Below are positions 3,679 to 5,314 of a stretch of 5,495 nucleotides of DNA, one piece after another; position 1 is the first letter of the stretch, and every line of letters starts with the position of its first letter. Source of the DNA: a virus (taxonomy: Duplodnaviria; Heunggongvirae; Uroviricota; Caudoviricetes); IMG/VR virus record IMGVR_UViG_638341087_000011, one strand, 5' to 3'. The notes under the pieces were generated by a model. It saw only the letters and a list, made by a program, of their open reading frames with translations. It had not been told where the DNA came from and ran no database searches. Made by a program: the position numbers and the translations under genes.

Positions 3679-4257
3679 ATGAGAGACATTGATGTAAGAA
3701 AGGCTGTGCATGCCAAGATTCTGAGAGATCATCATAAAGATCCTGACACCCTAATCATTGATGAGTTTACGATGAATCTAGGGGCTAGCAGAGCTGATAT
3801 AGCAGTGATCAATGGGCTTATACATGGTTATGAGTTGAAGAGCAAGAGTGATAACTTGCTCAGATTACCAGCGCAGGTGCAACATTACTCATCAGTGATG
3901 GATAAAGTAACTTTGGTTGTCTCTGATTGCCATCTTTATGATGCTTTAAGCATAGTTCCATCATGGTGGGGGATAAAGCAAGTTACGCAAGGTGCACGGC
4001 AAGGTATCCATTTAAAAACAATTCGAACTAGCAAGTTGAATCCACAAGTGGACAAACTTTCCTTAACAATGCTTCTTTGGAAAGATGAATTGCTTTCCCT
4101 ATTAAGTGATGTAGGGGAGCTACAGAATTTGAAAAATAAACCTAAACGCGTCTTATGGTCAAAACTCGCCAATAGTATGGATGTTGGCGAGCTTCGTGAA
4201 GCTGTTCGAGTTAAACTTAAAGCCCGTAAAGAGTGGCGAGTTGCTCAACAACCTTAG
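3679..4257 (+). CDS. Small protein with PD-(D/E)xK-type nuclease motif (E29...D40...E52-x-K54); possibly sce7726/MmcB-like; first gene of the convergent cargo pair
   Basis: ORF-track ORF. The N-terminal region LIIDEF...ASRADIAVINGLIHGYELKSK has the acidic-acidic-ExK arrangement of restriction-endonuclease-fold proteins (D40 codon 3796-3798, E52 3832-3834, K54 3838-3840). GC is low, about 37% in a sampled line. Weak RBS; a possible extended -10 TGaTATAGA lies at 3631-3639. Confidence 0.68.
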   Translation: MRDIDVRKAVHAKILRDHHKDPDTLIIDEFTMNLGASRADIAVINGLIHGYELKSKSDNLLRLPAQVQHYSSVMDKVTLVVSDCHLYDALSIVPSWWGIKQVTQGARQGIHLKTIRTSKLNPQVDKLSLTMLLWKDELLSLLSDVGELQNLKNKPKRVLWSKLANSMDVGELREAVRVKLKARKEWRVAQQP

Positions 4258-5314
4258 TTATGTGATGGTTTTGCCCAATCCTACGCCATACCTCTGGGCT
4301 ACCAAATTTATAGTTACCAGAGGGATTGGCTTTGTAGGCTTGATACTCGTTTGCATAATATTCTATGTCTCTATCTCCCGCACAGAATGTAGGCCCTGAA
4401 TATTCTCGATGAGCAAGAATATCCTCACTATGTTTACCATATTGTTCATAACCAAAGCGATTAGCTACTCTTCCTCGAAATACCCAAAAGTCATTATCTC
4501 CAGAGTATCTGACGCTGGCAGATACGCTAGGGAATCGCGTCGAAAGCCTATTAAAGTCGGGGTGCTGTACTCCATAATCACTATAAATCACATTTCTGGC
4601 AAGTTCTTTTCTATTCATTAAACTCTGCCATAAAATCCACTCGATTCGAGGTTGAGAATATAGACCAACAGAAATATCACTGAGATCTGTAGGAAATGAA
4701 CCCCCAGAAAGAATCACTTTTCTGTATTCATTGAGGTGCGCCAGATTGTTTATCAATCCCATTGCCAAAGTATATAGTTCGCCGGAATTAAGTTTATCCT
4801 CGGTTAACTCATCTCTTAAGTCAATAATTATATCAATATTTGATAAAGGAATTCCCAGATGATTAATGTAATGCGTTATTAATTGTGGGTTAACCAGATC
4901 TAACGTGGTTAATCTCAAGCATATTTCATTCTGCATTAATTCATCAATCGCTCTTTTATAGTTAGATGGGCGAGTTGGTGAACTGACAGGAATAACTCTT
5001 ATCCCCATATCTCTAACTTGATTAACCGCATTTATTATAGGGTAATGATCTTCAGGAGAAATAAAATGCTCTTCAATTAATAATCCATCAATATAAACAC
5101 CTTGCATATCTGAGCAAGATTTTGAGACTTTCTTTCCGAACTCTATAAGAGTCTCGTTATAACTCTTTAAGGCAATACCTGAATCAGGGTCAATTGGCAC
5201 TGGTTCAATTTCGAGTAATGGCAAAATTTTTGATTTCTTTTCAATGAATAGCTGCGATAAAGCTGATAACTCAGAACGTTTCGCTTTCAGAATAGGAATA
5301 TATGAAATTGTCAT
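4217..5314 (-). CDS. Beta-protein-family-like (sce7725-like) protein, 365 aa; second gene of the convergent cargo pair
   Basis: ORF-track ORF. N-terminus MTISYIPILKAKRSELSALSQL matches my recollection of the conserved N-terminal signature of the uncharacterised Beta-protein family (Pfam Beta_protein; NCBI sce7725-like). GC is very low, about 28-35% in sampled lines. RBS-like AAGGT lies upstream of the ATG; candidate promoter with -35 TTGCCA (complement of 5385-5390) and -10 TTCAAT (complement of 5362-5367), 17-bp spacer. Confidence 0.78.
   Translation of the reverse strand: MTISYIPILKAKRSELSALSQLFIEKKSKILPLLEIEPVPIDPDSGIALKSYNETLIEFGKKVSKSCSDMQGVYIDGLLIEEHFISPEDHYPIINAVNQVRDMGIRVIPVSSPTRPSNYKRAIDELMQNEICLRLTTLDLVNPQLITHYINHLGIPLSNIDIIIDLRDELTEDKLNSGELYTLAMGLINNLAHLNEYRKVILSGGSFPTDLSDISVGLYSQPRIEWILWQSLMNRKELARNVIYSDYGVQHPDFNRLSTRFPSVSASVRYSGDNDFWVFRGRVANRFGYEQYGKHSEDILAHREYSGPTFCAGDRDIEYYANEYQAYKANPSGNYKFGSPEVWRRIGQNHHITKVVEQLATLYGL

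Follow-up and report, generated by a model that had tools for sequence, protein, structure and literature searches.

The closest described relatives of the genes considered here belong to two published phage defense systems. The P4 gop-beta-cII locus protects against lambda and P1 (Rousset 2022, PMC9122126); Gop is toxic without beta (Rousset et al., PMC9122126, citing Ghisotti et al. 1990), and gop-beta-cII toxicity is triggered by the lambda-family accessory gene orf184 (Silas et al.). PD-lambda-2 comprises a HigB-like protein A, a toxic Xre-M78 peptidase B that is neutralized by A, and a protein C described as "related to a P4 phage antitoxin" (PMC9519451), which is needed for defense and not for toxin neutralization (Vassallo et al. 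2022, PMC9519451). Genomic islands and integrative elements are among the reported locations of sce7725/sce7726 gene pairs, and the literature on sce7725, sce7726, and PF14350 holds annotation mentions only. Here, we analyzed a 5,495-nucleotide stretch of DNA from the Caudoviricetes virus record IMGVR_UViG_638341087_000011 in IMG/VR (the window, meaning this whole stretch), in which two convergent genes, encoding a 192-amino-acid (aa) cII-like protein and a 365-aa Beta-family protein, form an AT-rich cassette. The system is of a kind already described: both families are annotated and have homologs in the two published defense systems. What is new is that the window holds the stand-alone beta-cII core of those systems. 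The cassette is probably a minimal version of a known kind of phage defense, and we propose, at a rough probability of 55%, that this core of gop-beta-cII (beta being found also in PD-lambda-2) serves in defense with beta as sensor or regulator and the nuclease as effector. The features that carry the argument are the following.

3679-4257, plus strand: cII-like gene, 192 aa, sce7726 / Pfam Phage_P4_cII family.
4217-5314, minus strand: Beta-family gene, 365 aa, predicted divergent TIM-barrel protein with the N-terminus MTISYIPILKAKRSELSAL.
3763-3840, plus strand: codons of the putative catalytic tetrad in the cII-like gene (E29, 3763-3765; D40, 3796-3798; E52, 3832-3834; K54, 3838-3840).
4217-4257, both strands: shared 3' ends of the cII-like and beta genes, 41 bp, with stop codons TAG and TAA.
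3505-5495, no strand: low-GC, cassette-specific insert, which runs ~195 bp beyond the end of the window to hok/sok and measures ~2.2 kb altogether.

The 192-aa protein is a full-length member of the sce7726 family, with residues 1-184 aligned to positions 1-183 of the 184 in the NCBIfam model at 191.1 bits (cutoff, 70). The PADLOC "cll" model matches it at 2.4e-28, and Pfam PF26915 Phage_P4_cII is present in every one of its close homologs. Its layout is that of a PD-(D/E)xK nuclease core (about residues 1-120) followed by a basic C-terminal helical domain. A preliminary description of the window had read E29, D40, E52, and K54 as a nuclease-type motif and had proposed structure prediction as a check for a nuclease fold. 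The predicted structure is confidently of the PD-(D/E)xK fold, has defense nucleases among its best structural matches, and places the catalytic residues on model strands E25-32, E37-44, and E48-54. The four residues are invariant in 32/32 aligned homologs, P4 cII included, and in all 103 complete non-identical relatives, and therefore do not represent a chance motif. Judged by sequence conservation and modeled fold, the cII-like protein is a conserved PD-(D/E)xK nuclease.

The 365-aa protein matches Pfam PF14350 Beta_protein at 175.7 bits (threshold, 27), with residues 5-356 on positions 1-341 of the 342 in the model. It had been likened to the Beta-protein family in its sce7725 form, and the first part of that assignment stands while the second does not: the NCBIfam sce7725 model scores 12.1 bits, below its cutoff of 60, over residues 5-39 only. 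The expected pairing with an sce7726 partner is likewise correct insofar as the pair is conserved, but the 192-aa protein had gone unrecognized as that sce7726 / Phage_P4_cII partner. Compared with an sce7725/sce7726 pair, the window thus shares the sce7726 member and differs in the other, which is a Pfam Beta_protein failing the sce7725 model; sce7725 appears to form a branch of partners of its own, at a greater distance. Among defense-system models, the closest is PADLOC PD-Lambda-2_C (PDLC03983; 6.5e-41, 138.6 bits), aligned from residues 4-362 to positions 6-354 of 374, and window beta retains nearly all residues that are invariant among PD-lambda-2C-type proteins. The P4-type "beta" model of PADLOC matches only weakly (15.9 bits, 1e-3), which places window beta in a different subfamily from P4 beta. 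The predicted fold of beta is a TIM barrel, with invariant charged residues (K/R10-12, E15, D76, R134, D165, R223, D246, and H351) at the barrel strand ends. In 102/102 loci, beta was less conserved than cII, at a mean identity of 33% vs 48%.

How far the two genes belong together was surveyed in one genome per species. A cII-like gene was present in 450 of these, and the 80 closest loci, from many phyla, were analyzed with genes called as stop-to-stop open reading frames (ORFs) matched by profile; the survey was seeded with cII and restricted to the 80 closest species, so cII is held in it by construction. In 77 of the 80 loci, the immediate 3' neighbor of the cII-like gene is a Beta_protein gene, in every case encoded on the other strand; of the three loci that depart from this, two are contig ends. 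On viral contigs seeded with beta, a convergent, overlapping cII-like gene was found in 54/59; in the remaining five, beta is truncated or the contig ends, so that the convergent pair is present in 54/54 testable viral loci. The conserved pairing that the preliminary description had put forward as a check is thus seen from both sides. A tightly coupled ORF 5' of beta is absent from 64 of 96 non-redundant pairs, and about 16 of the 96 carry PD-lambda-2 A/B (PADLOC, 1.7e-34 and 5e-146; Pfam HigB_toxin and Peptidase_M78), while gop occurs in P4 alone. Near beta in the 59 beta-seeded viral loci, neither gop (phmmer with P4 Gop) nor PD-lambda-2 A or B was found. The stand-alone form, then, predominates among the sampled relatives and is the form on all sampled beta-seeded viral contigs, which is the second new observation. 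Another recurrent partner 5' of beta was considered and rejected, as the genes there other than B are heterogeneous (integrase, CI repressor, FRG/PDC-S15, and unknowns).

The convergent overlap of the pair is a family-wide trait and is fixed in phase. Two convergent ORFs with overlapping 3' ends had been described in the window, and they are present exactly where they were placed, sharing 41 bp that encode the conserved C-termini of both proteins (cII ending in LKARKEWRVAQQP and beta in KVVEQLATLYGL, each before its stop). Overlaps occur in 75 of the 77 genome pairs and range from 11 to 158 bp (median, 53). Their length equals 2 mod 3 in 75/75 genome pairs, 54/54 viral pairs, and 9 of 10 pairs found with PD-lambda-2B as seed, or 138/139 in total. 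Because overlapping genes tolerate in-frame changes only, the common phase indicates that the overlap is ancestral and has been retained. The sole exception is viral contig L164 (beta, 2334-3491, plus strand; cII, 3450-4037, minus strand), with an overlap of 42 bp, for which a frameshifted tail or a sequencing error may be responsible.

The preliminary description took the pair to lack an established function and to be uncharacterized. This does not hold, since the two genes are homologous to beta and cII of the validated P4 gop-beta-cII locus (PMC9122126). In the P4 record, gop and beta, of 133 and 355 aa, are encoded together on one strand. The 264-aa cII runs toward beta from the opposite strand, with an annotated terminator shared by these two genes where they meet, and RefSeq names beta and cII "beta family" and "sce7726 family." Like P4, the window has convergent beta and cII genes as non-essential cargo on a mobile viral element; the two beta proteins fall into one Pfam family, and the E/D/ExK motif is invariant across both cII proteins. 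It differs from P4 in several respects. The window lacks gop (PADLOC) and has no conserved ORF 5' of beta. P4 beta, from which window beta is distant, has lost D76, R223, and R269, and P4 cII carries an extra C-terminal extension relative to the 192-aa protein. The P4 genes are separated by the terminator and do not overlap, whereas those of the window share 41 bp. Finally, the window cassette is carried by a Rac-type lambdoid prophage, where it has replication/DUF977 genes on one side and hokD on the other, and does not occupy the psu-int hotspot. In the P4-Kan construct, a kanamycin cassette stands in place of gop with beta and cII kept (Rousset methods, PMC9122126), which indicates that beta-cII alone is tolerated.

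That tolerance bears on whether the cassette could be a toxin-antitoxin-like selfish element that maintains the prophage or itself with no significant antiphage role, as it does not show addiction for beta-cII alone. P4 gop/beta does act as a toxin-antitoxin pair (PMC9122126), relBE and hokD modules lie beside the cassette in the same prophage, and the cassette is mobile and patchily distributed. We nevertheless consider such a role unlikely. The window genes are convergent on opposite strands, unlike a type II toxin-antitoxin locus, and do not form one co-transcribed, autoregulated operon; moreover, the toxin-bearing relatives do protect against phage (PMC9122126, PMC9519451), and stabilization and defense are compatible.

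The likeness to PD-lambda-2 resides in beta, which is a full-length match to component C. The window and close loci have no PD-Lambda-2_A, HigB, or PD-Lambda-2_B matches, and the validated Escherichia coli type has no cII-like nuclease; where that type has the HigB/peptidase pair, the window has the nuclease. The two arrangements do meet elsewhere. All four sampled contexts seeded with PD-lambda-2B hold HigB, an M78 peptidase, and a Beta_protein, whose gene overlaps a convergent Phage_P4_cII gene by 50 bp. In many genomes other than E. coli, an A-B-C operon is followed by a convergent, overlapping cII-like gene, as seen in these 4/4 contexts, in ~16 survey loci, and in 6 viral loci. A-B-beta loci with no cII-like gene are also found (viral L156 and L157; E. 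coli L187 and L188), and the genes 3' of beta in these vary (a SIR2_2 protein, a hypothetical protein, and a helix-turn-helix [HTH] protein). In the E. coli loci, a gene for a SIR2_2 or a hypothetical protein converges on beta. There are, then, two PD-lambda-2-type forms, one with the convergent cII-like nuclease (L149-L152 and L162-L168, from many phyla) and one without it (L156, L157, L187, and L188), and the published three-gene description fits the cII-less form only. An initial case for PD-lambda-2 as a four-gene system with an overlooked nuclease rested on the four PD-lambda-2B-seeded contexts, ~12 survey loci, and a clone boundary just 396 bp beyond gene C. As a general statement this was rejected, because L187, L188, L156, and L157 have beta without cII. 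The comparison rests on related loci, with the ECOR42 locus itself outside the sample. Since the E. coli PD-lambda-2-type loci carry beta without cII, beta is a defense component in its own right with varying partners. A conserved nuclease, predicted from sequence and fold, joined to a predicted TIM-barrel protein that combines with alternative partners is the third new element here. Modules that couple a sensor to a PD-(D/E)xK nuclease (e.g., with Can2/Card1- or Cap4-type effectors) resemble the window in fold and logic only, not in membership: the window has no CARF or SAVED domain and no nearby cyclase, and the partner is a TIM barrel on the opposite strand.

Taking these comparisons together, we propose that beta-cII shields the lysogen from other phages, with the nuclease as the effector, which would cut DNA. 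The faster-evolving beta would be the phage-facing sensor or regulator, holding the nuclease inactive until an infection cue, which in the P4 system would be a lambda-family accessory protein. The outcome could be nuclease-mediated restriction or abortive infection. The obligatory antisense overlap would couple expression of the two genes, so that a shift in transcription of one alters the level of the other and sets or switches the ratio of beta to nuclease. Gop and the HigB/Xre-peptidase pair would then be add-on effector modules in a variable slot 5' of beta. A defense role, proposed in the preliminary description, is also what we infer as the most likely function. Some survey loci are also flanked by BrxL, KwaA/B, type I and III restriction-modification (R-M) subunits, AbiEi, and MzaA, in addition to integrases, resolvases, Rz, P4-type primases, and S24 repressors. 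The suggested survey of neighborhoods for defense islands was productive to that extent, and the defense-gene neighbors suggest a defense role.

Several points weigh against this proposal. No published experiments on any two-gene beta-cII cassette were found. In the validated relatives, toxicity is assigned to other proteins, namely Gop (PMC9122126) and the PD-lambda-2B peptidase (PMC9519451), and E. coli PD-lambda-2 works without cII. The neighborhood census is not a statistical enrichment test. The antisense coupling is drawn from geometry and from the P4 terminator-mutant phenotype given below, and the scan for promoters and terminators found nothing above chance. The suggested PADLOC check returned the cll and PD-Lambda-2_C matches in the window and no complete known system. 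The rules of DefenseFinder and PADLOC for gop-beta-cII and PD-lambda-2 presumably require the toxin components, which would leave the cassette uncalled. Finally, the structural matches of the modeled beta are generic, and its conserved residues at the barrel strand ends suggest an enzyme rather than a passive sensor.

An enzymatic beta would allow other divisions of labor. In one, beta is the effector, a toxic enzyme freed on infection, and the cII-like nuclease is accessory or regulatory, for example making or removing a nucleic acid signal. Beta occurs in each of the three types of system, PD-lambda-2 defense requires it even where cII is absent, the conserved barrel-face residues imply catalysis, and cII-like genes occur without beta in Myxococcus phage Mx4 and in Xenorhabdus. 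Against this, loss of beta in P4 is lethal via Gop (PMC9122126), and PD-lambda-2 toxicity maps to B and not to C (PMC9519451). Effectors are also usually the conserved partner, which at 102/102 loci is cII, and strict conservation of its nuclease active site is in keeping with an effector. We regard beta as an improbable effector. In another, R-M-like scheme, which we think quite improbable, beta would modify host nucleic acid (e.g., as a DpdA/TGT-like transglycosylase) and the nuclease would cut unmodified incoming DNA. A bolder version of the proposed core, possible but held with distinctly less confidence than the proposal itself, is that beta-cII is an ancient, self-sufficient immune core in which beta is a TIM-barrel enzyme of a new sensor or signal-processing class that licenses the nuclease, the phase-locked overlap hard-wires their ratio, and Gop and the HigB/Xre-peptidase pair are later add-ons. 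If so, Gop_beta_cll, PD-Lambda-2, and thousands of unannotated stand-alone cassettes would be one family with shared sensing.

Returning to the proposed sensor-effector core, its consequences would be considerable if the two-gene cassette protects alone. Widespread loci that rule-based detectors probably skip, given the rules we take them to apply, would be recognized as defense; the nuclease would be assigned as effector; and the role of the TIM barrel in phage sensing would become directly testable. With two genes, no extra toxin, and an E. coli prophage that lysogenizes standard strains, the window is the simplest natural context for studying beta, and its fixed-phase convergent overlap is a clean system in which to study antisense coupling between two protein-coding genes.

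The signals that might govern such coupling were sought by scan. No terminator-like site was found in the 41-bp overlap, and each transcript must therefore read antisense into the partner gene. Ghisotti et al. are said to have described in 1990 a P4 cII terminator mutation whose temperature-sensitive phenotype was ascribed to lowered beta expression; the P4 name "cII" reportedly comes from that terminator mutation affecting beta and does not denote a lysogeny regulator. Two upstream features were noted.

5315-5495, minus strand: region upstream of beta, with an AAGG Shine-Dalgarno sequence 9 nt ahead of the ATG.
3612-3641, plus strand: weak sigma-70-like site ATGGCA-18-TAGAAT, 38 nt 5' of the cII-like start, a candidate promoter only.

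The candidate promoter scores 9/12, but six sigma-70-like sites were found where 7.8 are expected by chance, so that the site is no evidence of function. Promoter and terminator counts were at or below shuffled expectation, the beta upstream region included, and there was no Rfam match. A 43-aa ORF 5' of beta (5338-5469, minus strand) was considered as a third cassette gene and rejected, having copies only in near-identical E. coli and no Pfam match.

The host element is a lambdoid prophage. Escherichia phage Rac-SA53 matches the window DNA at 99.7-99.9% identity, as do 93 of 5,426 complete E. coli genomes. Rac-SA53 labels the genes "CII phage-like protein" and "beta," for which RefSeq has "sce7726 family protein" and "beta family protein." Two annotated records place the cassette 3' of early/replication genes (P22_Cro-like, YdaT-like, and DUF977) and 5' of hokD, rusA, and Q. 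The match to cassette-free E. coli genomes ends on the left at window ~3493-3527 and restarts on the right at L001 14291 (window ~5690), at the hok/sok locus; these limits of homology on both sides delimit an insert of ~2.2 kb with these two genes alone. The records and boundaries agree with the earlier view of the pair as prophage cargo, and the low GC content remarked on at the time is likewise found: 0.381 in the block 3505-5495 (cII-like gene, 0.409; beta gene, 0.372) vs 0.52 in the cro-to-replication region 514-2355. AT-rich composition starts near 2850, i.e., upstream of the cassette. The best explanation is that the cassette is a ~2.2-kb moron taken up by a Rac-type lambdoid prophage.

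This setting also speaks to whether the pair could instead serve the phage life cycle, as a nuclease and helper for recombination, repair, or lysogeny control with no link to immunity. The cassette does lie in a nin-like region near rusA, a homolog in Gordonia phage Powerball is annotated "exonuclease," and "MmcB-like DNA repair protein" is among the names used in databases. Yet the flanking prophage backbone is present in >2,000 genomes and the complete cassette in only 93 of the 5,426 from E. coli, and the cargo site differs between phages. The pair also occurs in non-phage islands beside R-M, BREX, and Kiwa genes, and cII is listed as non-essential in P4 (PMC9122126). A life-cycle role is therefore very unlikely. 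The variation in site extends to E. coli itself, where a second, divergent cassette (L087-L089; in L087, 3134-3754 on the plus strand and 3696-4763 on the minus strand) lies in another lambdoid prophage. It encodes a 206-aa cII-like protein (53% identity) and a 355-aa beta between Rz and terminase Nu1, so the two-gene unit uses at least two cargo sites.

The beta-cII pair is also carried by Gordonia phages Powerball and DumpsterDude and by Mycobacterium phage Mycofy1, in which it lies just 3' of the lysis genes. In Powerball, where the label "exonuclease" is that of the cII-like gene, the pair has HicAB toxin-antitoxin genes next to it and lies in the interval bounded by the tail genes and the integrase (L004 3725-4317 and 4872-6684). 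The region between tail genes and integrase is the usual site of prophage-mediated defense genes in actinophages. Of the cII-like genes without beta, that of Mx4 lies inside a co-directional operon (L005 3992-4561). In Xenorhabdus koppenhoeferi (L015, 6567-6800), a co-directional ORF 3' of the cII-like gene has a Hanks-type kinase catalytic-loop motif (HRDLKPANIL...DFG) and may be an alternative partner.

Several further observations concern the prophage. A 64-bp intergenic element (window 3430-3493) abuts the left cassette junction and is found in >2,000 E. coli genomes at 84-95% identity, as well as in unrelated phage records, mostly unannotated (mEp460, vB_EcoS-640R1, and one labeled Actinobacillus phage). 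The element may mark a module boundary or act in recombination during moron exchange; as a structured RNA it was rejected, its folding z-score of -0.88 not being significant. In Rac-SA53, an IS1 with an 8-bp target duplication (L002 8124-8889) is inserted ~165 bp 5' of the cII-like gene, the expression of which it may change. The prophage toxin-antitoxin loci relBE and hokD are at L001 5531-6012 and 14473-14628, with hokD directly adjoining the cassette. A 358-aa ORF at window 1279-2355 has no Pfam match, and only its 5' part (to 1742) has a counterpart in the related prophage of NZ_CP027355, where it corresponds to a DnaT-like replication gene. Window positions 1743-2386 have no DNA match in that prophage, and the window has no replication-protein-P-like gene. 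This partial DnaT-like match, together with the lack of a P-like gene, suggests a mosaic or deleted replication module and possibly a defective prophage. The early operon starts with a ydaS/ydaT-type pair, a P22_Cro-like HTH ORF (514-804) and a YdaT_toxin-family ORF (716-1213), which share 89 bp when read from their most upstream start codons.

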